DNA of 63,126 bases, counting the filler, from Hausera hauseri (lineage: Eukaryota), in the NCBI GenBank assembly GCA_046269625.1. It is 9 parts of 9 records of this genome, joined end to end, with 100 filler letters (N's around TTAATTAATTAA, not from the genome) between each part and the next. Parts side by side here need not be neighbours in the genome. Positions count along the whole stretch, not along the records: positions 12,942 to 20,118 come from JBJURY010033113.1; positions 20,219 to 24,537 come from JBJURY010637886.1; positions 24,638 to 30,379 come from JBJURY010196748.1; 6 more parts are not named here. The stretch is one strand, 5' to 3'. Made by a program: the position numbers and the translations under genes. Positions 4,801 to 63,126 of the stretch are shown here, in pieces (positions within the stretch are counted from its first letter, which is position 1; every line of letters begins with the position of its first letter). A model generated the notes under the pieces. That model saw nothing but the letters and a program-made list of their open reading frames with translations, was not told where the DNA came from and did not search any database.

Positions 4801-7420
4801 ACCACTCCATTTCCATCACTAAGCTCTGGCAAGAAAAACAGACTGTTCAATGGACCGCCAAGCTAGTCAGCACTTTTGATCACCTTAAAGATAATCTAAA
4901 AACCGTGGAAATTTTGGTCTATCCCGACTCCCATGCAGAACTCTTCTTAACCACGGATGCATCCACAACAGCTGCAGGTGCTGTCCTCCATCAAGTCAAA
5001 AATGGATCCCATGAGCCATTAGAAATCTTCGCTCGAAAATTCACGGTACAAGAGCAAAAATATTCCACCTTTGACTGATAGTTGCTTGCAATGGTCCTTG
5101 CCGTAAAACACTTTAAGCATCTGCTAAATGCACGAACTTTTACAATGCAAACGGAACACGAGCACTTGCTTCAAATTCTCACCATGAAATTGCCTTCTCT
5201 CCGTCAGAAGAGGCAAATATCGTATTTGTCCACATTTACTTTTGAAATTAAGCACCTAAACGGAGTCAACAATTTAGTAGCTGATTGATTTCACACAAAT
5301 TTTCCCTCAATCTAATCTTCAGCAAAACTAAACAACGCATGACATCCTTAAACCTTTTAAATCGCGCAAAACCATTGACGGTTTGGCCTTTGACACCTCC
5401 AAACCTAATAATCCTAATGTCATCCTTTATGAATCGCTTCAAAAAGAAGCATTCAACAACATCCATTCGCTGCACCATCCTGGTGCCAAGGCCACTTTTC
5501 GTCTCTTACAACGCCAAGTAGTATGGCCGTCGATGCGCTCTAACGTGCATGCATGGGTTAGACAGTGTGTGGCATGCCAAAAATACAAAGCTACTAAGTA
5601 CCTAAAGCCACTACTATATCATTTTCCTTGCACGTCTCGTTTTGAATCTGTTCACATTGACCTTGTAGGCTTATTACCCTTAGACAACGGCTATCAGTTC
5701 ATCCTCACTATGATGGACCGTTCCGCTCGATGGCCAGAGGACGTCCCGCTTCGGAGCACCAGCACAGAAACAATCGCAGACGTTTTCATCCGCACTTGGA
5801 TCAGCATGTTTGGATCACCTCGCTACATCATTTCGGGCCAAGGTCCACAATTTGAATCCAACCTGTTTAAAGTTCTTTTCAATCGATTGGGAATTAACCG
5901 CATTCACACACCACCATATCATCCCCAATCAAATGGCCTTCTCGAACGCTTGCATCGAACGATGAAAACGTGTCTCAAAATCCTTGCGAAGTCCAATCGC
6001 AGTTGGACTACGCTCCTTCCGTACGTTCTGCTTGGACCGCAGAACACACCATCTACTTCTACAGGCTGTTCACCTGCAGAAGCATTATTTGGCACCTCTA
6101 TCAGACCATTATTCGAGCTGGCTGAGCTGGACAATATTCCTACAGACAAAATCATTCAAGAGGCACAGAGGCACTTCGTTGCAATCAGCAAAAACTCATT
6201 TTGTAGACTATTACACAGAAATAAATCTTACATATCCGACGATTTATATATTACCAAGTTCGTATGGCTAAAGAATCAGACGTTATGTGGTTTTCAACCT
6301 TACTATATCGGCCATTACAAAGTAATGCGCTTACACTCTCACAACATCATCATCCTCAAAGACGACAAAGAAGTAACAGTCCACATGAACAACGCTAAAC
6401 CGGTTTTCTTCATTGACGACATGTCTCTCATCGAAACCACTTCGCCACCAACATCTTTACACGACGCGCAGCAATCCAACAATTCACATTCCATCTCAGC
6501 TCAACCCTTTAACCCACTTTTATCTACGTTTTATCCCAAGACTTCGGCTTCAATTTCTTCTGACAATTCAGCCTCATCTTCTCCATCTGATTTTGCACCT
6601 TGAAGCCTTCTTATACCTCTTTCATCCCATGATAACAACCTTCTTTCTCCTCTTACAATACCTCCTCTATTAAACACTACTTCGAATTCACCAATCTCTC
6701 CATCTACCCCTTTTATCATTCCAACCACTTGCACACCACTTTCCAAATACTTTCCTTCGCCTTCTCCACCTTCTTGCTCTCTTCCATCTTGTCCCTCTTC
6801 GCCGTCTTCTCTCTCTCTTTCTTCTTCCATACCTTCCTCATCTTCGGCGCTTTCTTTCTCCCTTTCTCCTCAAACATCGCCTTTTGACCCTTTCATTTTT
6901 GCTTCGCAACTTCCTCCTCTCTTAACTTCTACCCCTATCTCTCTTCCTCTCTCCACCACTATCTGTCTTTTATCTTCCACTTCCATTCTTTCACCCAATT
7001 CAATTTCAACTTCTACAACAACATTTTTCTCTATTCCTTATTCGCCTTCTTTTTCTCTTCATTCAGACTCGTCTTCGAACAACACTACACACAACAAAAT
7101 CTGACAATTTTTCCCCAACTTCAAACCCTGCAAGCAAACACATCGCATAAAGACAGAACACGCAAAGTCACATTTAGCAAGTATAGCAGTGAAAAATCAG
7201 TAGAAGGCACCAAAAGTCTTGTTCACACTAAGACCGACTGACACATACACTTTTTCGTTTAGCGCTTTTTTTCGTCTGTTTTAATCTTTATAGTTTTCAC
7301 TTTGCCATGGGGGGTGATGTGGTGCCCACAGCTGCCGGTGCCCTTTGACCCATTTGGTTGGGCACGGCCGGGCGTTCGCTGCCGCCACGTCGGGCCCATA
7401 GGCGGGCCCAATCTTGCACC
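1810..7420 (+). mobile_element. Decayed Ty3/Gypsy LTR retrotransposon (family A, copy 1)
   Basis: Gag fragments with two CxYHxxFG..C...C knuckles (~3000-3160); protease FLIDTGA (~3360) and LGSDFL; RT (DAYPLP, YIND replacing YIDD); RNase H TTDAS; integrase HH-CC, HIDLVG, YHPQSNGLLER; purine tract GGGGGGTGA then TGTGG at 7318. Many stops and frameshifts. LTR boundaries uncertain. Confidence 0.93.
5383..6603 (+). pseudogene. Gypsy integrase with Ser/Pro-rich tail
   Basis: HSLHHPG..CVAC zinc finger, HIDLVG, ISGQG (second catalytic D mutated), YHPQSNGLLERLHR, PYYIGHYKV. Confidence 0.93.
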
Positions 7421-12941: not shown

Positions 12942-13520
12942 TGGTTTTCGGTATACGTTTTCGTAATACTATGGAACATCATCTTTTGGTTCCTCATTTC
13001 TGTTTCGTAGAAATCGACTACTACTATTCCCGATTCTCTTCCTTTTCCGGTATCATATTCACCTCCTTTACAGTATCCAGCGTGCATATCCTGTTTTCCA
13101 ATAGCTACTTTATATACTCGAATTATCTTTCCTAGCTGGGCCTCCAGCTCCATTCCATCTCATCTCAATCTTCCGGTTTCTTTAGCCTGTTTACACTGTT
13201 GTCGATGTAAATCCATAGGTAATAGCGGTGTCGTCGGTTTTACTATCGACGAGTGTCCGTGTATGTTTCCACAGTGGAAAATACTTCGGGATCGTCGCAA
13301 CATGCAGTCCATTCCGTCTGTTGCAATTAGTTCGCGCTGTTGATATAAAAAGTACCTTTTTTCAATCGTTACTAACTTGTGAGGTCTGGCATCTTCGCAT
13401 AGTTCCAAATCCATTAAGGAATATCTTTGTCCAACCTTAAACTTATCGCAGTCATATACTGTGATTGCACCGAGCTGTCTAATTAGCATCATAAGCGTTA
13501 TCAGTTTAATCATCCAATTT
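12942..13520 (-). pseudogene. Chuvirus-like fusion glycoprotein N-terminus with internal signal peptide
   Basis: WMIKLITLMMLIRQLGA hydrophobic signal, then VYDC..YSLMDLELC..C..IFHCGNIHGHSSIV..C..ETG, matching the chuviral G pattern (YDC..SLLD..EC..CGMHSHxSIV). One in-frame stop at 13160. Confidence 0.82.
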
Positions 13521-14019
13521 GATTCATTATCTCGCATTGAGCTAGTTGGTATTAAATTTCTTACCACATCTTCAATTCGAGTGGTCGGTCTGTTTCCATC
13601 TTCGTCATCGAATATCTTGGACCAGTTTATCTCTCTAGGTACCTTGCTAGCAGCTTTTCGTATCAATCCAATGGTTCTATTAAACTCATTTTCCTTTAAA
13701 GGGTTGGTTTTGATTGCCAAGTACAATATTACTTTCCTTAATTCTTCCTTAGTATTCTCTACCATAACTTTCTCAATTAGAACTTCGTCGGATAAGTCGC
13801 TTTTATTCATTTTCAACCGAAAGGTTCTCATAATCTTCGCAGCATCATATATCGCTTTTTCTTTTTCGTCTAACATCTCGTTTCTCGGTCCTGAGTAGTT
13901 CACTATTTTGATAATGTATCTCAGCAACTCGTTTAACTCCTCGCTAAGTTGATCGCGGGCATGGATAGTTGCCTTAATTCTCGAATTAGAACTGCGCTTT
14001 GGTCAATATCATCTCTTAT

Positions 14020-14454
14020 TTTTCTTGGCCTTCCAACTGGTCGTTTCTGTTTCGGTGCCGTTGATATCATTTCACTCATCGGCACTAGATTCTTATCGTA
14101 TTGTTCCTTATCTTCTTCACTCTGCAGGTAGTCGAAGTACATGACGGGGTCTCTGACTCCCATAATGCGTCCTACGCAATGTTCATCCCGCGCTTTTCTC
14201 GTGGCCTCATCTTTTGTCTGTTCGTCGGTAATTATCGCCACTATACGGTTTGTTTCTTCTGGAATAATCCCAACATCTATTAGTAGTTCGGGGTCGTCCA
14301 GTATTCTACCTCGGAAATATAACCGATAATTTACGTCATCTTTTCCACCGTTTCGTACTATCCATTGTTTTACTGCTCTAACCGATGTCGTCGTTGTGCA
14401 TTCAATTTCTTTTTCCTCCATCCATTCCGTTGATATTTTTACATTAACCGTCGT
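14020..14454 (-). CDS. Ubiquitin-like domain followed by an AT-hook, within ORF 13933-14850
   Basis: TTVNVKIS..TTSVRAVKQWI..YRLYFRGRILDDPELLIDVGI matches the ubiquitin fold pattern; KRPVGRPRK is an AT-hook. Confidence 0.75.
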
Positions 14455-15037
14455 CTCGGGTTTAGCTTTTAAGAAATCAGCGTATTTCTTTATCAGTAGT
14501 CTGGGCACTGAGCTATAAACAGTATTTTCGCTTGATAGTTTTGTCAATGTAGGGATCAATTGTCTCAATTTGCACTCCGTCATGTTGACGTTAATCTGCT
14601 CAATTAATTCTTTCTCAGCTAGTGCAGGATCTAATATCATTTCCACGTTAAATCGTCGATCGATGGGAAGAATGTCTGTTGGTTGAAGTTGGATGGGCGT
14701 CTTCGGATTTTGGTTATATAACTCTTCTAGGTAAGCATCCCATCCTGAGTCATCTGTGACATCTGGAATTCCACAATCTAGATCTGCCATCGGCATGCTT
14801 CGTGCATTTTTACGAATTTCATTTAGTCTTGGCTGTATTTCCTTCATCAAGTTAGTTCGAAACTCTGTTCCATTTCCACACGCAATTTGTATCGTTTTTA
14901 ATGTCGGTCCTAGTTCATTTGTAGGGAATAATCATTTCCTTTCGTAATCCGTTAATTCAGTCGTCACATCCGTTAACCATCTTTGTACGAATTCTCTTTT
15001 ATTCAATAATTCCGATTGCGTGATCTTATATTTATTC

Positions 15038-17013
15038 TTATAAGTCTCCAACTCTGCCTAATTCATCTAGCTTCGTAGCTCTCTGTTTGGTACGAATTCT
15101 CCATTCTTCTATGTCTTTAACTTGTGCTGTCAATTGTCGTGTCGTATCGTCATCTATTTCTGCCATTGACGATAATAATGAAATTATTTTGTGCATTTCT
15201 TTTAGAGTTTTTGAATCTGGATCTATTTCTTCCATCAGTCTCTTTACGAATCTGGCTTCGTCTAGTGTGAGGCGATGATCTTTGGTTATTTCTATTAATT
15301 CCGCGTGACAATTCTGGTCGGTATCCGATGCCCACTCAATAGGACGATGTAGATATTTTAGTACTTCTTCTATCGCTTTACGATGCTTGGGATACATATC
15401 CAACGTCGATAGATCATCTGTGGATATTTCATCTATAGGCCTTGTTATCAATTGTCGTACACCTTCCAGGCGGACATCTTTTAGTCTCATCGATAAGGAG
15501 GAGATCTTTTCTTGTTTCGACGATAATTCCATCTCTTCGATCGTGGTATACAATTCTTCAGTAAGTTTCATTTCTTGATTGTTACTCATAATTCTTAGTC
15601 TCAATAACGCGTTAAATTCAACTCGTAATTTTGCCTCTATTTTGTAAACATTTAGGTTACGCAGTATTTCTTTTAGCTGTTGCTTTAATATGGGTTCACG
15701 TTCTGAGTATTTCCTTAGGCGATATCCCGTTACACCCATTAATCTATCTATTAAATTGATCCATTCTTTAAGTTGGTTGTCAATTATAGGCTTCGCGCAT
15801 ATCACATTATCTAGCCTTTCATAAGCGTCGTTCAATTTATCATCTGGACCTTTTATATAGTCCATTATTCCTTTTACGTAGTTAATTTCCTTCTTATATT
15901 CGTCCAGTTCTAAAATACATTTTTCCGTTATACTTTGTACTTCTTGGTTTTCCGCATACGTTATTTTAGTCTTACATCTGTAGATCTCGGAGCGCCTTTT
16001 ATCTTGCTCGGCTATGCGAATTCCTATATTCGCATATTCCTTTGGTGCGTTGAACGCGATCTTACACATCTCAATTATAAGGGGAATGTCTACAGGTTCT
16101 ATGCCTAGTATTGAAAGTTCATTTTCATCCAATTCATATATTGGTTTATTTTTAAGATGATAGATTACTGCGCTCTCTATTTCTACCATCACCTTCGCTA
16201 AATTTCGTTTTGTTAGTTTCTGGTTCGGGTGTTTCCAGCGTCTTTAGTAATGCTTGGGCGGTCGCCATTTTATTCTTAATTTCTATTTCTTGGTTATTCC
16301 ACGTCTCTATGAAATCAACTCCGCTTTTTATCCACGAATCTAGCTGTGTCTTCCATTCTTCAATTGACTTTTCCGTAATTTCGTACTTTTGCTCTGGTTC
16401 TTTCTCTTGGTTCAGGTCCTTCTCGAGGAACTGTTTAAATTCTTTGTACATTCTTTCGGCGAATTGCTGTTCATTTCCTGACACATCTACTTGAGTTTTT
16501 ATACGCCTTAATTCTTCCAGATTGTGACGTATTGTTTCCGTATCTGTTGGTGCCATTCTAATCTCTTAATTTATCAGCATTTTTCCAGTACTTTCTAATC
16601 CTCCATACCTTCCCATCTAGCTTTTTGATTTGTTCCGTGCTATCGCTTTCGCTCTCAAGTAGTGGACATATCTCGTTTATCTCACTGTTCGCGTCTCCTG
16701 CTGTTACGCTAGTGCTTGGAATTTCAGTAAGCTCCACACCTGGAGTGTTTAGGCTCGGAATGTCCTCTATGTCCACATCTCGGACTTGAATTATTTCTGC
16801 ATTATCTCTTTTTATTGGCGATCTTGATCGACCCTTCGACTTCCTTTTTAGTGATGGACTACGACCTCTATTTTTCGTTATCTTAAGGACTAATGGGGCT
16901 ATATATTCGCTTTCGATTTCGTCAGCCACATTTTGACGTCCTTCTGTCAGGTTTTCGGATCCTGCGTCCAACTCTACGTTGGACGATGTCGTCGTTACCC
17001 CGACTTCGGTCAC
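15038..17013 (-). pseudogene. Long acidic/helical region of unknown function following gag
   Basis: ORFs 16558-17013, 16152-16556 and 15038-16192. The first is in frame with gag across a single TGA. E/K/I/L-rich, with an RS/SP basic patch (RGRSPSLKRKSKGRSRSP). Confidence 0.6.
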
Positions 17014-17022
17014 TTCTTTTAT

Positions 17023-18372
17023 TCATATAGGCTTTTCAGGCACACTCTTTTTACGAATCATATTACTATTGTCTGGCGCTATCAAATATTCATATTTCGT
17101 TCGAGGTTCAACTAGTCCGTGGTATACTTCTAATATTCGTAAGTTATCTTTATATTCTTTTCGAGCCTTTAGGATTTGCGGATTATTTGTTTCATGTTGA
17201 CTTTTCAAATATCGACGGGAATCTTGAATGTCTAAGATTGCGTCTATGTCACCTCTGGGACCGTATTTCGCCTCTAAATCTTCTTGCGTCTTAATCATAC
17301 TTGCTTTAGTCGGTTCAGTAAATGAAACACTTCGCGGATTTGGACATGATCTAGCTATGTGACCTTCCTTGCCACATGTATAACATATTAAATTTCCATT
17401 CCTACCAACCCGCTGTCGACCGTCCTCGTTTACGGGCGATTTTGTACGACTGTCGTTTTTTGAGGATTCCATCCTACTACTTCCGTCGTATCTGTTTTCA
17501 TTGTTTCTGAAATCGTTGTATCTGTTTCCGTCCTTATATTTAAAACCTTTGCTAGTACTCTTATAACCATCTTGGTTGCTGTTCGGCTTTAAATTCCGAT
17601 TATTATCATCAAAGCTTTTGTTTCCATAACGTGGATTCCTATCCATCCTATTATCAAAATTTCTGTTTCGGTTAGGTTCATGGAATCGTCCACTATTTCT
17701 GTTTCTATCGCTGCGCTCATTGCGTTCATTTCGCTCAACGTTCCTATCGTGTCTTTCATTTTGCCTAGCATATCTGTCTAACGCCATCTCCAGGTCCTGT
17801 GCCAATTGTAATGTTCTCTCAAAATTCTCTGGTCTTGCTAAAATCAATTGTTTCACTAGGTCTCTTGACCAAATGCCGTTGATTAATTGTGTTGTCATCA
17901 TTACATCCAAATCTGACGGAACTGCCTTTTCTGCGGCTTTACGTTCGGCGTCATCTTTTGCCTTAGCCATATTTGAGATTCTTAAAGTACTGATATAACT
18001 ATTTGCTAACTTCTTTAAGGCAAACGCAAACTGGGTGACCGATTCGCCCTTCTGTTGCGTCCTATTTTGAAATGCCATCAACTTTTGTTGTGGAGTTACC
18101 GTCGGTAGTAATTTTCTATTTAATGCGCCTACTAATGACGACCAATCCTTCTTTTCTTCGTCCGTTAACTCGGCGTAGGCATCTGCGGCCAAATTCTTCA
18201 AATAAAGCGACAACCGTTTAATCATCTGCTGAGGTTCTAACCCTATGCCTTCAGCGTGAAGTTTATAAGTCCTTAAAAATTCGTTCAGACCTTCGGGATC
18301 GCCGTCATATGCCGGTAAATTTAACGATTCATACGTAAAAATGTCTAACTTCCGTCAAGCCGTATCTGTCAT
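17023..18372 (-). CDS. gag: Gag (capsid plus CCHC nucleocapsid) of the family B element
   Basis: LPAYDGDPEGLNEFL..; RTQQKGESVTQFAFALKKLA major-homology-like motif; CYTCGKEGHIARSC knuckle. In-frame ATG at 18372 with one early stop. Confidence 0.9.
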
Positions 18373-18744
18373 TTTATTCGTATTTGCGTTTGTTTCTTTT
18401 TCTACCTTACGTCGATCGATTACTTCAGCCGGAACTTTAAAATTTGTTTCTAATAACTCTGTTAGATTTTCTCTGGACTTGGACAATGTACGCTTTTCGA
18501 CTGGACTCGTTCGTACTCTACTACGGGTTCGTCTAATGTTTAAATTTTCCTTACCGTTTAGGTTTAAATAGTCTGTTCTATTATGTCTGTCAATATTTGC
18601 GTTTTAGATTCCCTTTATTTAATACCGGACCTTATATCCCAATTTTATATAACCTATTCGTTACAATTAATTGGTGTGATGCGCTAATCGCTGGGTATGT
18701 CGTTTTAATTAACTCTGAAGTAACAGTCTAGCGAGGCATAAACT

Positions 18745-18762
18745 GTCTTGCTAGGGTCGCCA
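18745..18762 (-). promoter_or_regulatory. Primer binding site (possibly tRNA-Arg type)
   Basis: TGGCGACCCTAGCAAGAC starts 2 nt after the LTR end ..TCTAACA on the minus strand. Confidence 0.75.
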
Positions 18763-18764
18763 AA

Positions 18765-19575
18765 TGTTAGATTTTGGGTTGAGCCCTAACTTCTCCCACT
18801 ATCTAACAATAGTTTTTAATATTTTTGTAGTGCAGGTTAGGTTTACCGTTATCGGTAAATCAGGATGTGCCTTACTAATTAATATACTGTGCCGGTACTG
18901 CGTGTGAAATCCTGTGCGGAATTTTTAAGAATTCTCTCCTAACTATATAAGTTACACTGAATTTTATAACATTAAGGTAGTCCAATCACCCTTAAGGGGC
19001 AAAGAAAAACTATAAGAGAATTTTAGAAAAGAAAATATATTTTACCAAATAACAATTACGTTCTAACGTTCAGTATCGAATACAACTTTCAAAACTGTCT
19101 GCAATATCTGCGATAACGATGCTACAATAACTCGTCAAATTATTCGGATTCAGGACACTTCTCCTTCAAATATCGAATATCGTTAAGGATCTAATTCCGA
19201 AATCTTCTAGAATACTGTATTCGTAACAACAACAATTCTTCGGAAATTCTCTCTGGAATCGGAATCACTTGTTTTGTCAACAACTCGCAAGTCAACAACG
19301 ACTGACTGACTGTAAAATCCATCGGCTTATATACTAACTAATTTGCCGATTACATAATTTCCGTTTGATTTAATATCGATTAAATTCCATTTTCTTCGAT
19401 TTCAGATGATTATTTTGATTGCTAAGTGGTGTTGCACATTTTTTGCATTTCGTAATTCATTTAAAATTCCGATAACCATTAAGTATTTCACATAAATTGA
19501 TTTACATGTACTAATTACATAATAATTCGATCTCATGCTACTACTGGCTATCAATAATATGTACATACTATAACA
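18765..19575 (-). repeat. 5' LTR (~811 bp) of the family B element
   Basis: Begins TGTTA, ends TAACA. TATATAAG at ~19330 with TCAGT initiator-like repeats ~25 nt downstream. Abuts the PBS on one side and unrelated capsid sequence on the other. Confidence 0.8.
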
Positions 19576-20118
19576 CAATGTATTGGATGGGGAAAGAAAG
19601 CAGATCCCAAGAAATGGACTGAGAAATTCAGTATTATTTCTCTATGTGGTCCATTAAATTTTGATTTCTTCAATCAACCGAAGTATTTGATTCCAGGTGT
19701 TAATGTCGATATAAAATTAACAAGAAATCCATGTGATGTAATTTTAAAATGTGTTGCACCAACTGGTACTGATGCTGCTTCGAAGACGATAAAACCGGAA
19801 ATATATTTTCAAGAAATCAAATTATTAGTTTGACGTGTAAAGGTGGAACAGTCAGTTTTAGTTGGACATCTATTGGAACTTGAAAAGCAGAATTCAATTT
19901 ATCCAATTATGAAATCGAAAATTTGTCACATATTCAATAGGAAAGGGTTCAGTGTATGAATATAAGGACAATTTATTTTCTGATGAAAGACTTCCAAAAT
20001 TTGTCTTAATAACATTTATGGAAACATCACAAATCAATGGTGATTACTCAAAATATTGTTCGGCTTTTGTTCACAAAAATGTAAAGTCTATAACATTAAG
20101 TCGACAAATGGACTATCG
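19576..20118 (+). pseudogene. Polinton/Maverick major capsid protein fragment
   Basis: LCGPLNFDFFNQPKYLIPGVNVDIKLTRN..IKLLV*RVKV..IYPI..DNLFSDERLPKFVLITF..GDY..F.HKNVKSITL, the typical Polinton double-jelly-roll capsid motifs. One stop and one frameshift. Confidence 0.85.
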
Positions 20119-20578
20119 NNNNNNNNNNNNNNNNNNNNNNNNNNNNNNNNNNNNNNNNNNNNTTAATTAATTAANNNNNNNNNNNNNNNNNNNNNNNNNN
20201 NNNNNNNNNNNNNNNNNNCGAAAGAAGAGTAAACTCAGTACACCCAAGAGTGGCCCCAGAACACCTGCAACAGAACCAGAGGAAAACCAACCTGTGAAAG
20301 TTTTTGACGAAACCATATTAGAACAAGTGATGCGAGACACGGGTGTAGATCTGGACGAGGAAGATGACATTGTTCAATCAGTAATGACAATCGATCCTAA
20401 AAACTTAGTTGACGACGACAGAACAACTACTACGATATTTAAGTTAATCGATAACAAAATATCGACACAGAAACTGGATGAGATTTTGTTTCAACTATTA
20501 CTACTTGCCCATGATACGAGTCCAGTGAGAGAAATAACACGCACAGTGCTAGCTAAAGTCACCGAAGATGAAAAATGA

Positions 20579-20953
20579 ATAAATATAACGGTAAGGATAA
20601 CCTTGAGATAAGGAAATCAAGAGATGAGAGTCATCAGGATGAATAAAACAGATGATATACTAACATTACGGGAAAAGATCGGAGAACTAGAGCCCTCCTA
20701 TAAAGAGAAGACATATAGGCTGAGTTTCTATGGCAGAACATTATATAGTTACGATAATCCATTAAGAGTGGGATGTAGAAGTGAGAAATATAACCCAATT
20801 AGGATAACAGAAATACATGCGGATACAAGAGCTGAAGAAACAATAGGAAATATAATAAGGGAAATTCAACCCCAAGACATAGAAGAGCACACTATAGGTG
20901 ATATACAGAATGTCACAGTACAGATGGAGGTTAGAAGAAAGGGAAGACCCAAA
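20579..20953 (+). pseudogene. Ubiquitin-like domain plus AT-hook-like motif
   Basis: INITVRIT..DDILTLREKI..YRLSFYGRTL..LRVG..NPIRIT; RRKGRPK. Confidence 0.65.
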
Positions 20954-21130
20954 GAAACGAAGATAAGTGACATCCGGAATAAACGGGATAGAAATAAAGA
21001 AATAGTACGGCGATTGCCATTGGCAGGAACTGACTCATTACCGGAATCCACAGATATAGATCCATTGTTATGAACGTTGTTAGAAAAATTACACATATCA
21101 TTTGCATCCTTCGATATGCAAGTTATGATC

Positions 21131-21440
21131 CCTAAGGAACTGTTTCAAACATTACGAAACAACATGTTAAGAATTAGTAGGCAATTTTACGAAAATATTG
21201 ACGAAGAACAAATCAACGAATTACATGAGCAAGACATATTAGAAAAGATGTTCGCGGCAGGAATTACGCGAGAAAAAGTACAAACAGCTGTAGCCTACTT
21301 ATTATATAAAGTGATTGCTATCAATCACCAGACCCAAAACTTAGAAGAAATTGAGCGAAATATTAAAGCAGCGGTTAAGGTTCTAAAAGACACATTAGAA
21401 AATTGGGTCCAATGTAGAGGTGGATGGGTGACAAGTCTAA
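21131..21440 (+). CDS. Bcl-2-like domain
   Basis: BH1-like EKMFAAGITREKVQTAVAY and BH2-like LENWVQCRGGW at Bcl-2-like spacing, preceded by a BH3-position helix LRNNMLRISRQFY. Confidence 0.65.
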
Positions 21441-21547
21441 TGAGTAACGTAAGAAGACCAGAAGGATATGGAGGACTAGCAGAAACGCCAACCGCCGCAC
21501 AGTCAAACCTACACACGCCAAGACAAGGCGTAATGGGAATGACAATC

Positions 21548-23549
21548 ATGGAGATTTTTCTGTTAATTTTAATAACGTCGTTGTTGATGCCAAAGGCCAT
21601 GGGAATTGTAGCATACAATTGTTCAAAACCTAAAGAAGGTCGGAAGTACTCCTTAGTTGATCTAGAAAAATGCCCTAAAGCTGATCCAGAACAATTGACG
21701 ACGACCAGAGGCCATAGATATTGGATTTACCAGGAGTCTGAATTTGTAAAAGTCAAGATTAGGGAATGTTGTGTAAATAAATCTTTCTTCCTGTTTAATT
21801 GCGCATACTATTCTGGAAATTCTGCAATAATTGAACCAACAACACAGTTCGAACCAATAATAATATCGCGTGCCGAATGCCAAGATGCTTTTAAAGTCGG
21901 AGTAATAACGATACAGAATGCACAGATACCAGCAGTACGAAATAAGACAAAATACACTCGAATCTTTAGAGCTGGAAAAATAGATAAAACGAGGGAAGGC
22001 ACGTGTAAAGAAGTAGATTACGATGTTGGAGGAACGATAGCACCAAGATCAGTTGCAATAGAAGATTACCAAGTTCAATTAAAGGAATACGAAGGATTAT
22101 TCGACTCCCAGACTAAACTCATGACGACAATGTGCGAGTGCGAATACGAAAGCGGCGAATGTGATACCGGCGAATCTAAAATGACTTGGGAAGTAACTTC
22201 AAATAGATGTCATTTAACCCTGCTGAAAGAAGAAAAATTTAATAAAACAGTCGAAAAAATAACCGAAAAGGAAACAACAACATATAAGGAAGGGATCAAA
22301 AAAGTAAAAATGACGGAAGTCGCAACGATAGTATACTCAGAAAATCCTGAAGAGATGATGCGATTTAAAATTATAGGAACAATAAATAAATGCGATGAAG
22401 AAATATCCAAAACTAACTATAAAGGCATTTATCTTTCACTTAAGGAAATAGCCCAAGCAAAGACTAAGATAAACAAAAGGGTTATAAAGTAAACGCAGTA
22501 TTTTGATAATAAGATTGAATTTTTAATCAACTATGTTAGAAAAGAGATTAGAAGTCTATATATAGAAATAATAATGAACGAATGCAAGCTAAACTATGAA
22601 ATCGTACGGAATAAAATAGCTTTAGTAATAAAAAAAACCCCGATATGGTAGCACCAGTAAGGCCATTCGGTGATGGAGTTATTGAAAGAGTAATGGTATG
22701 AAGTACTAATAATTATTGAATGTAAAAAGGTGGAAGTTATGATAAGACCAACGGACGAATGTACGTCGGAGTTACCCGTGATTTACCACAGAGCCTAGAT
22801 ACGTTATGCCCGTAACTAGGATATTGCTAGACGTTAATGTAAAACCCATTCGGCTGGATAACTGTACCTTTAACATGGCACCTATGTTTAAACTAGATAA
22901 GAAGACATGGATCAGGATGCCTAAAAGAGAAACAGTACCGAAACCAGAAATGTTAAGTTTGATAAATTTACAAAGGAATCAGAAATTTGAACCACTTACG
23001 GGAATATCTCAAGGAGAAATTTATACACAACAAAATTTGGAAGATTACCGACGGATTCTGTTATTTCCTCAACAGAGACAAAGAGTAATAACGGAATTAA
23101 CAAGAAGGGTGATGTGGGACGGTGAAGGCTCACCACAATAGAAAAACCTGATGGGAAAAGATTATTTAAAGAAAGTTACACGGAATATCATGGAAAAGAT
23201 GTGGGGAAAGTTCTTGTATTTTGGCCAAGCAGCCTCAGGATTTCTTGCTATATCTTTTATCATTATAGCACTAAGAACGATATTCACCACCCTCAGTAAG
23301 GCTTATGGCATACATGCAGCAGTAGGCTGTTCTTGTAAGATTTTAATAGCAGTAATACAGGCCGTAGCTAGTTGTTTTCTAGCGAAACATGATGCTCAAT
23401 GGAAAAAGAAAATGTTTAAAGAAAGAAATGAAAGGAATTCCTTATATAGTAATATAAATGACAAAAACGATGATGATGATGACCCTGAGGTTAAGCCAAA
23501 AAGCGATAAATATATAAAGAGATGGAGACGTCTTTCATTAAAATCATGA
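21548..23549 (+). pseudogene. env: Essentially full-length chuvirus-like envelope glycoprotein
   Basis: Signal MEIFLLILITSLLMPKAMG; AYNC..YSLVDLEKC; CEYESGEC..W; TNYKGIY; YFDNKIEF..LY..NECKLN; EVLIIIECKKVEV..CTSELPV; GEIYT..LEDYRRILLFP; hydrophobic WGKFLYFGQAASGFLAISFIIIAL and second hydrophobic segment. Confidence 0.88.
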
Positions 23550-23675
23550 AAACAGAAATACAAACAGAGATTGGTAACAGATTTATCGCAACTAGACTTA
23601 GCAGAGGACGGACGAGTCTATAACGAGCAAGTGATGGCGAATCCATGAGCTCCTCAGTATTAGATACACGGAGGA

Positions 23676-24523
23676 ATGTATCCCATGTATCAGATACTAC
23701 AAATAAAAAAGGGTTATGACGATAACATTAGACCATATAACCATGAACCGACCTGCAAAACAACGAACAAAAACGAACCACAATCACCTCTAAGGCCAGA
23801 GATAAATATAGAAGTAAACGGATATTCACTAACGGCCTTGATGGATACAGGATACACAACCACAATCATGGAAGAAGATCAGCTACCTAAAGAATTAAGA
23901 AGAAAGCTAAGAAAACCGAACACAACACTAATTAATGTGGGAGCATTTGGTACAGAAGAAGAAATAAGGATGGTCCTAGATGCGGAAATAAAAATTTGCA
24001 ATCAAATAATAAGTCTCACTATCAGAGTGGCTAAGAATTTGACCAGCGATATAATAATCGGATGCGACATATTAAACCACTTAGGGAATGCCTATATCGA
24101 CTTAAAGACGGGTCAATTAAAAACCTTTAACAAGGATCAACATGAAGGATCAGCTTCATTAATACAGGATGTCGTAATCCCCCACGTTCCGAAATAATAG
24201 TGCCTGGTTGAATAGAAAGTAAACTACTTGCCACGTACATACACTTCGAACCATTCTCACGAACCATGGAGAATTACGATATCATCATCGCTCCACACGT
24301 AGACAAAGTGAGAAATGGAAAGATTCACCTACAAATTTGCAACACTGGAAACAAGGAAAAACGATTAAAAAGAAATACAAGTTTGGGACAAGTAACGGAG
24401 ATCGAAGAAACACTAAGAGAAGAAACTAATTCAGTCATATCAGATGTAGATAAGATAGAAGTAGGAGGAAAGGAGGAGTTGGCCCCAAACCCCCCCCCCC
24501 CCTCAGGGAAGGAAGGAAGCTAA
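23676..24523 (+). pseudogene. Retroviral-type aspartic protease and the following beta-rich region (start of pol)
   Basis: IEVNG..ALMDTGYTTT..IIIGCDIL; followed by VVIP..LQICNTG..L.RNTSLGQV, a segment common after Gypsy proteases. Confidence 0.88.
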
Positions 24524-24796
24524 TGGGAGGAGAACACNNNNNNNNNNNNNNNNNNNNNNNNNNNNNNNNNNNNNNNNNNNNTTAATTAATTAANNNNNNN
24601 NNNNNNNNNNNNNNNNNNNNNNNNNNNNNNNNNNNNNCATTTAACAGCAAACTGATTTCAATACAATTTTGATATTTCATCTCATTTCCATCTGACAACG
24701 CTACACTTGATATTCTGAGATTACACTTGATATTTACATGGTGAGCAAAATCCTCCAACCGATACGCTAAGCCCTCCAGCGTGACCACACCTTAAG

Positions 24797-27700
24797 CACT
24801 ACATCACACCCCCGTGACAAGATGAGGACTATGAAGAAAAAAATAAATGAAAATTATAGTAGGAAAAGGAGAACTTGTATCTATTCGGTTTTGGTACGTA
24901 TAAGACGTTAGATTCCATCTATGAACTTCTCCCTGCTGTAAGTACTAAATGTCACTTGGCGTGAGTTGTTAGATGCTACTGGTGCTTGTGCAGGTGTTTG
25001 AGGGAGAGATACTGTTAATTGTGTGGTGTTTTGGGAGGATTCTTCATGAAGAAATAAAAGTGAAAAAGAAGCTGAAAAGGAAAAAAATTATGCGAAGAAA
25101 ACGAAACTGGAGATGGCAGCGAATCGTGCGATGAAGGTGAAATGAGTAATGGATGTGCAGGCGAAGACGGAGAAGAAAATGGTGAAGGAGCAGTGGATGA
25201 TGACGGAAGTGATGAGAACTGATTGTGACGCGAGAGTGAATGCTGCGGAAGATTAAAATCATCAAGGAAATTAGATGATTGCTCGAGGGTAGAGAAGTTA
25301 GAGTTGGGATTTGAAACAATGCTGCTGTCGTGGTCATCTTTAACAAAGAAGGCTGGCTTAAGATTAGAGATGTGTACGTTGTAAGGTCTGTGCTTGCGTA
25401 AAATAATGGCGATATGCGAAGAAGGGTTTAGTAGTTTGTAAGGGCCAACGTATTTGGGCCGAAAACCAGAAGGTGGCGGATCCTTCAGCCATACAAACTT
25501 GGCTGAATATAAGTCTTCGGGAATATAGGATTTGCCATTATTTATGAGGCGTCAAAATGCGTTTGAGTTGATATCTACAAAGTGTGACTGTCGCGCACGA
25601 ATAACTTCATCTGACGGGCTTTTATAGAGATTGGAGAGCTCAACTAGGGCACGAATTTGTGACCCAAAAAGAGCTTCAGCTGGAGCACAGCCTGTGGTGG
25701 TGGATGGCCAACCTATTAGGACAAGAGGAAGAATTGAGGTCCAGTTATGATTGTTGTTTGCTAGTATTTTTAAGGAAATCTTCATGGTGCGATGAAATCT
25801 CTCGAAAAAAACATTTGCTTTGGGATGATACGGCGTCGTATGGAGATGGGCTATCTCCAAGTGCCTTACAAGATATTTGAAAAAATCAGCTTCAAATTGC
25901 GGACCCTGGTCCGTTATGATATGACGTGGTGAGTCAAAACGGCTGACCCATATCTTGGTAAATGCATCTGCGACTGAGTCTGTGTTGGTTGCTAGAAGCG
26001 GAACGGCTTCAGGCCAGTAGAAAGCACGATCCATTATGGATAAGATATTTTGATAATCATTGTCGGAAGGTAGAGGACCCACAAGATCCAAATGCACGGT
26101 TTCAAAACAAGAAGTGCAAAGGAGGTGGTAAAGTGGTGGTTTGAGTTGTTTGTGGATTTTATATTTCTGACATGCTACACATCTCTTGACCCAGATCTGT
26201 ACTTCGGTACGCATAGTTGCCCATAAAACATGGCGTTGCAATAGACGAAATGTGGCTTTTGAACCCGAATGATGAAGAAAGTGAAAACGAGTGAAAGCTG
26301 TCTTTTGTAACGATGGAGCCAGAATGATTTTCTTGTTGGTCGAGTTGGAAGGTTTGCCATCAATAATTTCAAAAGATTTAAAAGCTGGGAGAATAACAGA
26401 CGATGGTTCATTACTTCTCAGGATTTCAGATGAAAAAATTGGCTGAAATGTAATTGAGTTGACCGACCGCGACCGAAAGTCTGCTATTAAATTTTCGGTG
26501 CCGGAAATGTATTTCATAGAAAATCTAAATGTCGACAGGTATGATATCTGTAGCTCCTGTCTGGGTGATGGCTGTTTTAACGTCATGATATAAATTAGAG
26601 ACTTGTGATCGGTCTGGATGGTAAACTGACGAGATAGAAGCAAATGCTTGAAATGCTTTACCGCTAAAACTACGGTCAGGAGTTCACGATCGAATGTTGA
26701 GTATCGGCTTTCCTGTTGCGTGAGCTTTCGGGAATAAAATTCCAATGGTTCGTCAACATCATTGTATATTTGGTGTAATATTGCACGAGTGGATGTGGTT
26801 GTGGCATCGGTAGTTAATATCAGTTCCGAGTTTGGATTTGGAAAAGCCAAGATTTCAGCGGTTTTTAAACCTTCACGAAGGCGATCAAATTGATTTACTA
26901 TATCGGGAGTCCAATGGATTAATTGTCTTTTCGTGCTGGGTGAGAGGTGTGCGAAAGGTGCAGTTAGCTCGGAGCAATGTGGAACGTATTTTTGTACGAA
27001 ATTCAATGTCCCTAGAAAACTCCTCATATGGTAGTCGTAGTTGGTATTGTCACATTTTTTAATTGTTGTAAGCGATCAGGCTGGGGCGAATGCCCTTCGA
27101 GAGTAATTATGTGGCCTAAGAAGTTGACGCGTTTCCGGAAGAAAGAACATTTGGCGAAATTTATTTGCAGGTTGCTTTAATGCAATCTATGGAAAATAAT
27201 TCTGAGGTTATGATGATGTTGTTTGATGGAGCTGGAAACGACTAATATGTCACCTATGTATGGGTAAGCAAAATAAAGACCTGAGAGGACGGTTTCAATG
27301 TGGCGCTGAAAGGTGTGAGATGCACTACGTAGGCCGAAAGGCACGAAGATGTATTCGTAAGGCCAAATGTTGTGATGACAGCAGTTTTTAAAATGTCATC
27401 AGGAGCGACAGGAATTTGATGGCAGGCCTTGTGCAGATCAATGGTAGAATAGGCATTGGTGTTGTTGAGTCTATGAAGAATATCTTTAATGAGTGGTAGT
27501 GGATAGGCATCTGTAATAGTTAGATTGTTTAATTGTAATTAGTCGCCACATGGCCTATAGGTATCATCTTTCTTTACCACTAGAAGAAGAGGAGAAGCCC
27601 ATGGTGAATTCGATCGCCGAATGATGCCAGACCTTTCCAGTTCCTGCTTAATTGACATCCGTATTTGCAAGTGACCAATAGATCATGTGCAACAAGAAAA

Positions 27701-29380
27701 TCTGAGCCTATTATGAGTGATTTAATGTTGGCCACGTGGAACTTCCAAATAAATTTATCTGGCAAGTTGGCGAATGTGAAAGTCAATTCCGTGGTTCCTG
27801 CAACGTGCAACGGTTGACCACTGGCAGTGAAAAGCGGTGGACAGGAAATTATAGTCGACGTAGGAACGAAGGACAAGGAAAGGAGCGAAAAGGCAGCTCC
27901 TGAGTCTATAAGGAAGTCGATATATGAAGTGTCTCTGCATGACAGTACAGCTTTCAACAGAAAGACTGTAGAGGCGGTGTTGAAACGGCCAGAAGGTTGA
28001 GCGATATTGCCTGCGCAAGAATGTGTCGTAAAATTTGGCGGCGTTATTAGTTTTTCGAAGGTTTTGGAGAAAAGGAAGAAAATGAAGAATTGCGAGGAGA
28101 TTTATCGTTGTAATGTTTACAACCAGGCACACATAATCTAGCCCATGACTGAAACTTATTGTAATAGACGCAAATGGGGTTGTCCACAGCATACCGTTCG
28201 CTGTAGAACCGACAACCAAAAAAACATTTCCGAGCATCCCTTCGAAATAGCGTGTGATAAAAGCAAATCATGCGTCCGCCAGGTAAAATGGATCGAGCAG
28301 AATATCTGGAAATGCTTCTCTCCTTTGAAGGTCTGGTTTCACTTTATCGAAGCCCATTAAGATTATTTAGTTGGGTAGTAATGGCCAAAATCGACTGCTG
28401 CAACTCGTCAAACTGTTGCTGCATCATTTGCAATTGTTGTGAAGTGTTATCTGTGTCTGAAGGTGTGAGCGGTTGCTGCCGCTACTGGTTGGTGACTATT
28501 AGATTGCAAAATGTCAAAGCTTTTGTCTGCCAATAAGGCGAGATTTTTAAGGACCGTTGAGAAGTCTACTACAGTGAGCCGTGCTCCGATGAAGGTCGGC
28601 AAGGATGAAAGAAACTACCGACGAAAAATATCGGCATTGTTTATAAGAGTGATGCCTAACGAACTAAGTTGAGATATTGTAGTTTTAAGGAAATCCGATG
28701 GTTTTTGATTTCCGATGGCATGTTCATTAAAGTATTTCTGAATTATGATGTCAATGGAAGGGTCGGTAATGTGCAGAACTGATTCATAAAGCATATCATA
28801 TGGATTTGAAGAAGTTAGTATGTCGGTCAGATTATTGATTTGCTGCTTGATATTAGCTGGAAGTAGTAACAACAAACTGTTCGCCCGCAAGAAGGAATGT
28901 GATATGATTAGCCTTAAGTTATTGCAAATGGAAATGTAAGCAGGTACGATTCGAATTCGTCTTATCGAGAAAAATCTGTACAGGGGAGATTTGGAGATGT
29001 AGATGGTGTGGGGTCGGCAGGACGACGACCAGATCTGGTCTTAGTGGGGTTTTCCACATAGGAAGGATCGGGGTCCGATCCACCCCGTAAGCGAAAGTGA
29101 AGAGTGAGGTGGATAATTTTGGAAGAAAATGCAGAAAGTTGGTCATTGAGATTGAGTATAGAACCATGATGTGAGATAAAAGTCTGACAAGTTGAGGAGA
29201 GAGGATAGATGTGCGTGAAGGTGATGAGAGGTATACGTGTGTGGCACATAGAAGGTATGGAGGTGTGTATTATTGAGGAATATAAATAGGGAAAAGGGAC
29301 GCGGCGCAGTGGGGGCGGTCACGCTCGATTTCTCACCAAAATCATTGATAGTTCTGTCTTGATCCGGGCTAGCATAGCTC
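24797..29380 (-). mobile_element. Decayed Ty3/Gypsy retrotransposon (family A, copy 2)
   Basis: Gag (28047-28890) with double knuckle; FLIDSGA protease; RT YPYIGD; RNase H LTTDAT; integrase HLDLVGP, ITDQG; purine tract GGGGGTGTGA plus TGTAGTG at 24803. Collinear with 1810-7420. Confidence 0.93.
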
Positions 29381-29814
29381 TGAGATGACATATTGCACTC
29401 CTTAACCAGTTAAATGATGGAATGTCGATTCGCAAATGTTTATCATAACTACCTTTTGATAAAGGTGACTCGGGCAATCCTATTTGGCGTTTTTGCTTCA
29501 ACGTAACTGATCGCACTGATCCTTGAACAGTATTGACAATTTATTTTTTATGGTCCATATCTGCCAACATTTCATGGAAATTTGTGGCATTCGGGAAAAC
29601 CGTTTTAGCTTGAGATGTACGTGTAAGGACACTTTTGCTAAATAAATGCGGTTCAGGATCTCTCCCAGTTATGCATTTTCTACATGTCAATTGATATACA
29701 TATATTACTCCAAATATATCGTGAATAATGAACAGGATGTTATCCGGCCAACATCCCCTTGCACATATGTTGATAACATAATCATTTTTTTGTTATTGGA
29801 GCTTTATCAATATA

Positions 29815-29991
29815 TTTCCGCAACAAAGACCCATGTTGCCAAATTACGAAGCTGTCTGAGTATTGTGAAAGACGAAATTGAGCCCGATTGAACAAACCCG
29901 ATGGTAAATATTCGAACTGGTATAGTAAATTTGATACTTTAACATCAACTGGCAGCAAGCAAGGAACATAATTGAACGATGCTCCTGGTAC
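29815..29991 (-). pseudogene. Roco-family COR domain fragment
   Basis: VPCLLP..YQFEYLPSGLFNRAQFRLSQYSD..IWQHGSLL. Confidence 0.65.
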
Positions 29992-30150
29992 AGTTGGACC
30001 GATACACATTACCTGTTTTTTATTAAAAAGCAACTGTTCGGTAATTTGAATAAATCGAACAATATCGATTGTTGGAACAATTATATCGGAAAATTTTGTT
30101 TCAGGTTTAATAATAAATTCAGGCATATTTTCTATCCAGTGAACCAATTT
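29992..30150 (-). pseudogene. Axonemal dynein heavy chain fragment (just before the AAA3 P-loop)
   Basis: W....PEF...PETKFSDIIVPTIDIVR....EQLLFNKKQVMCIGPT, truncated inside the GPTGTGK motif. Confidence 0.8.
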
Positions 30151-30799
30151 CATTTTCTTGTCCTTTTTAGCTTCTCCTTCTTGTTTATTACTTTCGGCTG
30201 AATTAAAAGAACTAATTATTATTTTGAAAAGACTTTCAAGGTTCTCCTGTTCGGATGACTTTGAAGAATTACTATCAGTAGCCAAGCCATCAACTTGACC
30301 CAAATTTGGAGTGGTTCCCATAATGGACTGAGTCTCCTGATTGTACTCACTATCCATATCATCATCACCATTGTTCATANNNNNNNNNNNNNNNNNNNNN
30401 NNNNNNNNNNNNNNNNNNNNNNNTTAATTAATTAANNNNNNNNNNNNNNNNNNNNNNNNNNNNNNNNNNNNNNNNNNNNTACTAGGGATGCACTCTATAT
30501 CTACATTAACATCTGCATTGGCTGCTGTAATATTTTCACATGTCTGTATCAGTCTGATAAGTAACATTGGGCTGATGGTAATATATGTTGTTTATTTCCA
30601 TCTTATTGCTGTTCATGTTTGGGTTTCTGGGGGCAGAAGGGATTGGTCATGTGGTATTTGTTTTCTCAAGTAAAATTGATACTGATGCAGGACAGGTGTG
30701 TGTGATGTTTACCTGAAGTAAAGAAGCAATGCCAGAAGTGTACTCATTTTTTCAGACTTGAAAGGGTATGGAAATATATGTATAACTTAAATACATATC

Positions 30800-40299: not shown

Positions 40300-41570
40300 G
40301 CTGAGGGACCGAGCATGCCCGCCCCGTTGCACTGCATCTCCTTTCTCTTCTTATTTTTTCCAATAATAAACATGTGTACACATTGAGGGTTGCATACAAA
40401 CATACGTCACACATCCTTTATTCTGCATTGTCTTCCTTTTTCGACCCGTCCGATTTTTATTCCATCCACAATAGCCTAACTTGTTACCTTCCGACTCTCT
40501 GTCATCTTTTGCATCCGGGAAGCATTCAATGATTCTTACTATCCATTTTCTTATCCGTGGTGGATCAGACCCTGACCTTCTGCCAAAAACTTAACCAAAA
40601 CCAAATCTAGTCGTCGTCTTGCCGACTCCACACCAAATACATCCCCAAATCTCTCTTGCACGCATTTTTTTCTCGACAAGACTAATTCGAGTCGTACATG
40701 GTTACAATTTCACTTGCAATGGCTTAAAGCCAATCATATCACAGACTCCTTTTTGAGGGCGAACAGCTTGCTGCTACTACTTCCAGCAAATATTAAGCAG
40801 CAAATTAATAATCTGGCCGACATACTAACCTCTGTAAATCCACAAGGGTCAGTTCTGCATATCACTGACCCTTTCATTGACAGCATAATTCAGAAATACT
40901 TTAATGGACATGCCATCGGAAATCAAATACCGTCGGATTTCCTTAAAACTGCAATCTTGCAACTGAGCTCCTTAGGCGCCACTCCTATAAACAATGTTGA
41001 TCTTCTTCGTCGGTATTTTCTTTCACCATGCCAACCTCCATCAGAGCACTGCTAACGGTAGTAGACAACTCAACGGCCCTTGAAAAGCTCACCTTATTGG
41101 CAGACAAAAGTTTTAACATTTTGCAATCTAATAGTTCACAGACAGTAGCCATAGCAACCGCTCATACACCGTCACACGCAGATAACACTCTATTTTTACA
41201 ACAACTGCATATGATGCAGAAGCAATTCGACACACTCCAACAGGCAATTTCTGCAATCACAGCCAAACTCAGTGACTTTCCTGTGCCTCGAGGAAGCGAA
41301 AACCGTGTTTCGCGCAATCGTAGCTTTTCCAGGCACTCTTTTCGGTCCAAATCTAGAGATGGTAGAATAATTTGTTTCTATCACAACAAATTCGGTAAAA
41401 AAGTAATAAAATGTGTTTTAGGCTGTCGATTTTACGATGAACGCTATGCAGTAGACAACCCAATATGCATCTATCACACAAAGTATCAATCCAAGGCTAT
41501 GTCGTGTGTGCCAGGATGCAAAAAGTATAAAAAGAATTCTAGTTTTTCTCCATCGTTGTCTCCTCGTACT
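40300..41570 (+). mobile_element. gag: Family A Gypsy copy 3: leader plus gag only, 3'-truncated
   Basis: LRANSLLLLLPANIKQQINNL nearly identical to 28615-28890; double knuckle CFYHNKFG..CIYHTKY. Confidence 0.9.
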
Positions 41571-50935: not shown

Positions 50936-51130
50936 GAACGGGCATCGACAATTACAGGCCTAGAGGGGCCACAGCCCTGCATGTTTTACTTGTTTCTCTA
51001 CTCCAACACCCCTGAATTGAATGAATGGATGATTATCAGGCTTCTGCTGAACTTAGTGGAGGTAATTATCTGACTGAATCAGGTGTGTTAGAGAAGGGAC
51101 TAAAGTAAAACATGCAGGGCTCCAGACCTG
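50936..51130. mobile_element. Teleost-type MITE (diverged)
   Basis: GCCCTGCATGTTTTACTT .. AAGTAAAACATGCAGGGC inverted arms. Confidence 0.7.
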
Positions 51131-61818: not shown

Positions 61819-63126
61819 TTAATCTGCTCTTAATTTACTTTCTTTAGGGGCAGGTTTATACCTGTTGACATGTACTTTAATTCTGACGTTATTTTTCTTT
61901 AGACATACATTGGGTAGGTCCACTTTTTCTATTTCGTACGGTCCCTTATAAGGTCTATCCAACTTGGATGTTTTGCCTTTCTTATTTAATGGTGTATATA
62001 ACATCATTTTATCTTCAACTTTAATTTTGGGTTGCTTACTTTTCTCGTCGTAGTGTTTCTTGTAGGTCAACTTATACTCTTTCTGAATGTCTTTCACTAT
62101 CTTATAGTCTAGTTGTAGACGTTCTTGCTTCAGCTGTTTGTATTCGTCTACTTCCATAAGATGAGAAATGGGTCATACATTAAAATCCAGATCGATGGGT
62201 ACCCTGGCGTCTCTCAAAAACGTGAAGTAGAACGGTGTTTCTTTTGTAGCTTTGTGCACCGATGTCCGATTTACAAACACGCAGGCATTAATATATTCGT
62301 ACCAATAGTCTTGTCTGGTACTAACAACTGTTTGTAATTTATTTTTTAAGTCACCAATGTACCTTTCGACCATTCCATTATTTTCTTGGTGGCCTGGAGT
62401 TGATCGTAACTTTAATATGCGCATTATACCATAAATAGCTTCCATTACGTTCCCAGTTAAATTCGAGGCTTGATCTGTCAATAAAATTTTTAGAGATCCA
62501 TAATTAATTACAATATTTTCTACAAATTTTTCGGCGATTGTATCAGCTTTCATGTCCGGCATAGGTAATGCCACGACCCATCGTGTGAAGTAGTCTATAA
62601 AGACCAAGATGTATTTATTTCCATTTCTTGTTAATGGTAATGGTTTTATTATATCCATGGCGGTAAATTCAAACGGAGCAGGAGGATTCTCCCATACTTT
62701 GAGGGGAGCTTTGAACTTTGATCCAGTATTTTTGCGTGTGGCACAGTTTGCAACTATCATACCATTCGTGAACATCTTTCGTCATAGTCGGCCAAAAGTA
62801 TTTTCTTTTCAATTTACTTATGGTTTTTCGAGTCGATTCATGTCCACCGAGAAGTCCATCATGGTATTGAGTCAATAGTACTGTTCTGTTCTTTTTAGGT
62901 ATAACTAACGCTGGTACATCTTGGTGTATATAATACAAAAGTCCTTCCTTCTCCTTGTACGCATGGCTAAATCGAGCCAGGTAGGGGGCTAACTCCCCCT
63001 TTTTTTCATCTTCACCCTTTTGTGATAACACCATGCCGACTCCATAGTCGCTTGCGTCTGTCGCTAATATGAAGGGTTTAATCATATCTGGGTAGACTAA
63101 AATTGGGGCGTTTAATAATTTTTGTT
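61819..63126 (-). mobile_element. pol: Gypsy pol 3' part: RNase H start (internally deleted) plus integrase
   Basis: KPFILATDASDYGVGMVLSQ; HDGLLGGH..YFWP..CKLC; AMDI, IDYFTRW, LTDQ, HQENNGMVER; YKGPYEI. Confidence 0.93.

Follow-up and report, generated by a model that had tools for sequence, protein, structure and literature searches.

The stretch of DNA analysed here, referred to as the window (63,126 nucleotides, 63 kb, of the Hausera hauseri assembly GCA_046269625.1), is composed of unrelated contigs joined by N44-TTAATTAATTAA-N44 spacers. Two of these, contig A (12942-20118, with an element on the minus strand) and contig B (20219-24537, with an element on the plus strand), very probably hold decayed copies of two related families of Ty3/Gypsy retroelements in which the envelope gene (env) is placed between gag and the protease (PR), and in intact relatives of these elements the same order occupies one frame that is likely translated as a single polyprotein. 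In the comparisons described below, broken frames were translated with X at stops, and pieces lying in different frames were handled separately. The env products of contigs A and B were 31% identical over 193 amino acids (aa) and no blastn match was found between the two contigs, which by sequence represent separate families. The following features were recognized on contig A:

18751..18769, minus strand: candidate 3′ end of a 5′ long terminal repeat (LTR; TAACA), a 2-nt spacer (TT) and a TGG-initiated motif resembling a primer-binding site (PBS), some 160 nt upstream of the opening of the gag frame
17026..18354, minus strand: gag, with a capsid region at 18327-17997 and one CCHC knuckle at 17385-17344; the frame, open from position 18603, is interrupted by a stop at 18357
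16155..17022, minus strand: a low-complexity open reading frame (ORF) in the gag frame past stop 17025, followed in the next frame by a helical ORF of 137 aa
15041..16243, minus strand: a helical accessory region of 401 aa with only weak local matches
14230..14586, minus strand: a helical domain followed by a ubiquitin-like (Ubl) domain, conserved across the lineage
14020..14043, minus strand: an AT-hook-like GRP motif, recognized as a sequence motif
13532..14002, minus strand: a helical region ahead of env that may be a degenerate Bcl-2-like domain
12942..13516, minus strand: a signal-like segment (13516) and the N-terminal part of a PF24664 glycoprotein, truncated where the contig ends, with a stop at 13162

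At the two ends of this series, gag matched zf-CCHC in Pfam (E 9e-7) and a gag profile built from six relatives (iE 1.6e-27), and the glycoprotein matched the first quarter of PF24664 (E 2.5e-14, profile positions 5-173 of 653). Between them, the helical-Ubl unit scored 55 bits with a profile of six relatives, a value reached by none of 200 shuffled sequences (best 4.7), and matched Pfam ubiquitin below the cut-off (E 0.0011). No Pfam family above cut-off was found in the ORFs at 16155..17022 or in the 401-aa region, and the latter gave no usable Atlas match; its 9.1 bits to a Bcl-2 profile and its E of 0.01 to the relative P0028 were judged to be helical noise. The slot immediately before env resembled the Bcl-2-like domain of contig B weakly (28% over 71 aa, E 0.10). 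An earlier note on this DNA had described gag as running through accessory domains directly into a signal peptide and glycoprotein, with no protease or RT between them. The order was recovered, and protease and reverse transcriptase/RNase H (RT/RH) profiles found nothing in the six frames of contig A (best RT iE 2.9), in agreement with that description; the passage from gag to env is, however, not direct, being interrupted by four frame changes, one of them near 16560, and by in-frame stops at 18357, 17025, 14934 and 13162.

Contig B begins further downstream in the element and extends past env into the protease. Its features are as follows:

20381..20809, plus strand: a helical domain and a ubiquitin-like domain, with stops at 20576 and 20609
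20933..20953, plus strand: an AT-hook-like GRP motif, likewise a motif match
21074..21445, plus strand: a Bcl-2-like domain with a BH2-type W-x4-GGW motif and a degenerate BH1
21539..23357, plus strand: a PF24664 glycoprotein with a signal-like segment at 21539, a Cys-rich ectodomain, a transmembrane (TM) segment at 23211-23267 and a weaker hydrophobic helix at 23301
23796..24105, plus strand: an aspartyl protease with its DTG at 23844, in the same frame as the env TM
24239..24428, plus strand: a PR-to-RT linker homologous to that of full-length relatives (profile iE 2.3e-8)

The helical-Ubl unit of contig B scored 52.7 bits with the relatives' profile, with none of 200 shuffles as high. The adjoining Bcl-2-like domain matched Pfam Bcl-2 below the curated cut-off (E 6.6e-4), and a profile of a nine-sequence alignment retrieved Bcl-xL from the PDB (E 2.7e-5). 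A low-confidence model of the domain (mean pLDDT 52.6) gave no Foldseek match reaching E 0.001, the rows listed being all of the Bcl-2 family (best E 8.6e-3), and a PDB search with the single sequence of the ORF reached at best E 0.1, to BOK. The claim that contigs A and B share the same accessory order was thus confirmed for the helical-Ubl unit and the GRP motif and not for the Bcl-2-like domain, since the corresponding slot of contig A scored 3.0 bits, equalled by 13 of 200 shuffles. Similarly, the contig B glycoprotein was said to be complete and to include a TM region; the TM is present and two separate segments match PF24664 (E 4e-24 and 4.6e-33), but the gene is broken by stops at 22490 and 23139 and by three frame changes in the interval from about 22635 to 22790.

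The contig B protease was recognized both by Pfam (RVP, E 4.9e-10) and by the relatives' profile (iE 1.6e-20), and, as had been noted before, it lies in the frame of the TM segment, from which it is separated by a gap of 42 codons (23550-23675), with stops at 23547, 23646 and 23661. The protease and the linker matched the PR and PR-RT linker of the relatives in the same order. A search of read runs returned two containing contig B sequence (X1 and X2), no RNA run being listed. In X1, 12,275 contigs aligned to contig B (656 at ≥99% identity and 5,014 below 90%), a summed depth that is not a copy number; all 30 bins were covered and the differences were mostly transitions. This is the pattern expected of an old, abundant repeat family. 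At least some of the contig B breaks are private to this copy, because nearly all of the X1 depth differs from it at two in-frame stops (among 40 listed of about 1,200 difference rows). The two runs do not constitute independent support, since X1 may be the source sample and the share of X2 is small (0.06).

The order that the two contigs show in part was found whole in their relatives, 26 of which were scanned with Pfam (three plus 23 chosen from 101 whole-library matches by length or by coverage of the Bcl-2 region). P0001, which is 46% identical to the longest ORF of contig B, carries gag, CCHC, the helical-Ubl unit, GRP, a Bcl-2-like domain and the first half of env in a single ORF of 1130 aa, and P0002 (3,761 aa) and P0003 (3,771 aa) run unbroken from gag through env, PR, RT and RH to the integrase (IN). 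In 13 of the 26 relatives a protease follows PF24664 within a single ORF; seven of these ORFs include RT as well, and four also an upstream CCHC and IN. These four, P0002, P0003, P0017 and P0022, hold zinc knuckle, env, PR, RT, RH and IN in one unbroken ORF, and RT before env was found in none of the 26. Because four relatives hold the whole order unbroken, the reconstructed gag-env-pol order is considered real. The order PR-RT-RH-IN was present in P0002, P0003, P0007, P0015, P0017 and P0022, with no Pfam family of BEL/Pao type listed. In a quick tree of env, for which 75 of 105 rows were used and 30 covering fewer than 150 positions were dropped, contigs A and B fell within a group of 23 rows (SH-aLRT 93) that holds most of the polyprotein-embedded envs, and contig B paired with P0001 (98).

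The ancestral polyprotein proposed in the earlier note, gag-X-Ubl-AT-hook-Bcl2-Env-PR-(RT-RH-IN), is in part directly supported by unbroken relatives (P0002, P0003, P0017, P0022 and, from gag to env, P0001), except that the Bcl-2-like domain appears, by sequence matches, to be patchy within the lineage. It was matched by Pfam, motif or alignment in P0001, P0004, P0005, P0018, P0028, P0031, P0033 and P0035. The number of CCHC knuckles also varies: contig A, P0001, P0002 and P0003 have one each and P0008 has three. Several relatives contain more than one protease-like domain, with three D[TS]G motifs in P0002, P0003 and P0007 (one of them past the integrase), four after env in P0008, and two in P0006 and P0029; contig B has one. 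In P0081, a C-type lectin domain (E 2.6e-5) is fused ahead of the PF24664 glycoprotein.

A chain of this kind would cross the membrane of the endoplasmic reticulum (ER) before reaching pol, and its probable topology was derived from hydropathy and from what is generally known of viral polyproteins. Gag would remain cytosolic together with the accessory domains, and the glycoprotein would enter the ER lumen by way of an internal signal sequence, its N-terminus being released there by signal peptidase. With the TM at the C-terminus of env the chain would come back to the cytosol, and the element's own protease would then release PR, RT-RH and IN. Host ubiquitin and cell-death pathways may be the targets of the Ubl and Bcl-2-like modules, by analogy with what has been proposed for the planarian Burro elements. 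In relatives with an ORF past the integrase, an ectodomain of fibronectin type III (FN3) type with its own TM would be exported through a further internal signal, probably as an attachment protein or a host-modulating surface protein; the second signal-like segment at this place fits a cytosolic pol.

Several observations weigh against this overall interpretation. No contig holds the whole element, A being 7.2 kb and B 4.3 kb long, and RT is absent from both contigs A and B. The env of contig A is a long branch without a strongly supported placement in the quick tree. Bcl-2 was not detected by profile in P0002, P0003 and P0008, besides the low-scoring slot of contig A, and an in-frame stop (17025) lies on contig A right after gag, 120 codons past the knuckle. 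Lastly, the topology comes from hydropathy, and a weaker hydrophobic helix (KD19 1.71) follows the env TM of contig B; if this helix spanned the membrane, PR would be placed in the lumen. It is read here as probably lying along the membrane, and constitutes the main uncertainty of the topology.

The stop at 17025 and the frame change near 16560 could alternatively be regarded as traces of staged expression, in which, for the contig A family at any rate, the gene order is the same and Gag is made alone, accessory-Env-Pol being produced from a spliced RNA or through read-through or frameshift where gag ends. Equimolar Gag, Env and Pol is unusual among retroelements, which counts in favour of such staging. 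Nevertheless, the breaks at the end of the contig A gag are attributed to decay, because other stops and frame changes of this copy sit inside conserved domains. Moreover, no stop was found between the knuckle and env in P0001, P0002, P0003, P0008, P0016, P0017, P0022 and P0029, and ORF1 of Burro is one frame of 4,873 aa (PMC6431247). Staged expression is therefore considered unlikely.

It is very improbable that the contig B protease belongs to a nested or recombined element and that its adjacency to env is accidental. The three stops between TM and protease would be compatible with such an event, as would the fact that no listed X1 contig spans the whole contig B stretch. On the other hand, the frame is maintained across the env-PR junction, X1 depth is continuous there, no repeat falls at the junction among those listed (25 of 58 for inverted repeats), and env is followed by protease within one ORF in half of the scanned relatives. 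Equally hard to sustain is the view that the glycoprotein gene is a stand-alone one, endogenised from a mononegavirus or chuvirus and inserted by chance into gypsy debris, which the definition of PF24664 as a family of Monjiviricetes fusion proteins would invite, since env has the same position in both of these divergent families and the nine matches with E up to 1e-30 were led by retroelement polyproteins (31-46% identity), those of stand-alone-env size (about 600-750 aa, a distinction by size) reaching 21-26%.

The placement of env between gag and pol, of which the earlier note knew no description, has in fact been published. Burro/GYPSM1 comprises Gypsy elements of Dugesiidae planarians (Grohme 2018 and Jurka 2007, as cited in PMC6431247), whose in-frame polyprotein includes Gag (CCHC), Ubi2/SUMO-like, BCL2-like, Env, PR, dUTPase-like, RT, RH and IN regions (PMC6431247). 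The Burro env matches mononegavirus fusion glycoproteins, and decayed copies with stops and frameshifts have been reported from Dugesia japonica; the elements have two to three knuckles, MATH, BIR, ankyrin and Smc or midasin-like regions, an ORF of 4,873-5,140 aa and a length of >30 kb (PMC6431247). As in Burro, env lies in frame between gag and pol, unbroken in the four full-order relatives and decayed in contigs A and B, and Ubl followed by a Bcl-2-like domain precedes env in contig B and P0001. Unlike Burro, contig A has one knuckle and the full-length relatives reach 3,771 aa. MATH, BIR and ankyrin gave no Pfam match at E 0.05 in contigs A and B and in P0001-P0003, the 3′ parts of A and B lying off the contigs and divergent copies possibly escaping Pfam, and the PR-RT linker of contig B, at the position of the Burro dUTPase-like region, matched no Pfam family and no dUTPase. 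The part of PMC6431247 that describes Burro names no post-integrase FN3 membrane protein.

A broader class is formed by GAG-ENV-POL Ty3/gypsy errantiviruses with an HSV/gB-type ENV from Nematoda, Bryozoa and Platyhelminthes, such as Smed_errantivirus_1 and _2 (PMC13524379). The elements described here share with them the gag-env-pol order and a chuvirus-related env, the Ty3/gypsy order of pol being taken from the relatives, given that A and B have no RT. Gag lies upstream of env with no pol between them in contig A and P0001, env lies upstream of PR in contig B, and PF24664 is by sequence of the gB-like class. In a comparison by eye with the domain I-II row of Smed_errantivirus_1 (supplement of PMC13524379), all eight cysteines of the latter had counterparts in the contig B env, and the motifs YQES, GTC, TGES, MRF and TNYxGxY were common to both. 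The main text of PMC13524379 contains no mention of Bcl-2, ubiquitin, Burro, fibronectin or 'single ORF'. Knuckle number places the elements outside Burro in the strict sense; in their workings they are like Burro, and what was found of their order and env fits the broader GAG-ENV-POL class. A glycoprotein of this broad class is also carried by LTR retroelements of a different superfamily, namely mosquito BEL/Pao elements with a glycoprotein of chuvirus type (PMC13524379, citing Dezordi 2020). According to the earlier note, env-bearing BEL/Pao elements have the order gag-pol-env, as do retroviruses and errantiviruses. A flipped order of env and pol in a gypsy element has also been reported for non-canonical nematode endogenous retroviruses (Sacco et al. 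2022, as cited in PMC13524379).

A further feature of the lineage lies downstream of pol. All five relatives with an ORF past the integrase (P0002, P0003, P0007, P0015 and P0017) have there a second signal-like segment, an ectodomain and a hydrophobic C-terminal segment; P0022 and P0042 end before this region. The five tails amount to four lineages, because P0002 and P0003 are close, and a motif of the type C-x2-L-x-[PG]-x-T-x-Y is common to four of the five. In P0015, the integrase is followed by about 500 low-complexity residues, a signal-like segment and an ectodomain without the FN3-type motif, and the post-integrase slot may thus hold different cargo. A comparable arrangement was found on contig C (59130-63126, minus strand), which lay outside the original observation:

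61842..63124, minus strand: RNase H and integrase, 45% identical to the P0002 integrase over 306 aa
60352..61818, minus strand: an ORF of 488 codons in the integrase frame past stop 61821, with a signal-like segment, an ectodomain, a TM (60507) and a short tail

The integrases of the window's two other gypsy elements are 27-30% identical to that of P0002, against the 45% of contig C. The ectodomain of the 488-codon ORF includes six N-glycosylation sequons, nine cysteines and a unit of predicted FN3 fold (60885-60595). A motif-selected FN3 profile is partly circular, the motif having been written after all tails were viewed, and the unselected test with tail profiles was relied on instead: with the P0002/P0003 tail profile, the contig C ORF gave the best match (E 0.0011) among 681 window ORFs, the runner-up standing at E 0.25, and with the P0007, P0017 and P0015 tail profiles it was not among the best eight matches. 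Modelled with four related stretches, the unit formed a seven-strand sandwich (pLDDT 75) that matched FN3 domains in Foldseek (E 3e-4) and in VIA (Z 9.8, rmsd 2.2 over 87 residues). Atlas leads to FN3 for the ORF stood at 0.86, below the 0.9 mark, and its single-sequence PDB search gave an unrelated best match (E 1.9). None of 2,728 candidate long proteins was related to the contig C tail, and among the ORFs seen none combined a Bcl-2-like domain with a post-integrase tail. The model suggests, then, that the contig C tail carries an FN3-fold unit, on a contig unjoined to A and B and with a fold whose sharing does not show function.

With regard to the 5′ boundary of the contig A element, the LTR-end/PBS-like motif proper is TAACA-TT-TGG at 18769-18760. 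The pattern TAACA-N0-3-TGG occurs nine times in the window, and the candidate therefore rests on its position and not on rarity; no second LTR is present on the contig. A decayed ORF without a Pfam match lies at 19300-20118 (plus strand), facing away from the contig A gag, and is similar to a Polinton/Maverick capsid gene. Unless this ORF was inserted into the LTR, the LTR can be no longer than about 530 nt. Elsewhere in the window, decayed gypsy elements of another lineage without env, which we take to be CsRn1-like, occur at 2329-7104 (plus), 25015-29040 (minus) and 40576-41633 (plus), and the segments 28463-28782 and 40849-41167 are 83-87% alike. Two 87-nt copies (50969-51055 and 51613-51699), 75% alike, may resemble a teleost fish repeat, and contigs from more than one animal may be combined in the window. 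A dynein heavy-chain fragment (AAA_7, E 3.5e-7) adjoins a COR-B match (E 4.8e-6) at 29785-30378 (minus strand), and six repeat copies with a 36-nt period lie within open frames on both strands at 55817-56140.

The gag-env-pol architecture being already published, contigs A and B add two decayed families to it, which is of modest value. What is added beyond them are unbroken natural polyproteins with the full order, a patchy Bcl-2-like domain and a post-integrase membrane protein of FN3 type. No description of a post-integrase FN3 protein in such elements was found in the titles and opening abstract lines of the papers returned by a literature search, in the main text of PMC13524379 or in the Burro section of PMC6431247, so that its absence from print is weakly shown, and a search on Bcl-2, env and flatworm elements returned no matching paper. 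Some enveloped viruses divide fusion and attachment between separate proteins. By analogy, it may tentatively be proposed, as a possibility with the odds still against it, that this lineage is a two-glycoprotein retroelement not yet described, with a gB-class fusogen and a post-integrase FN3 type-I attachment partner, and that contig C is such a 3′ end. If the FN3 protein were a component of the particle surface, it would be a candidate for how gB-class retroelements choose their target cells.

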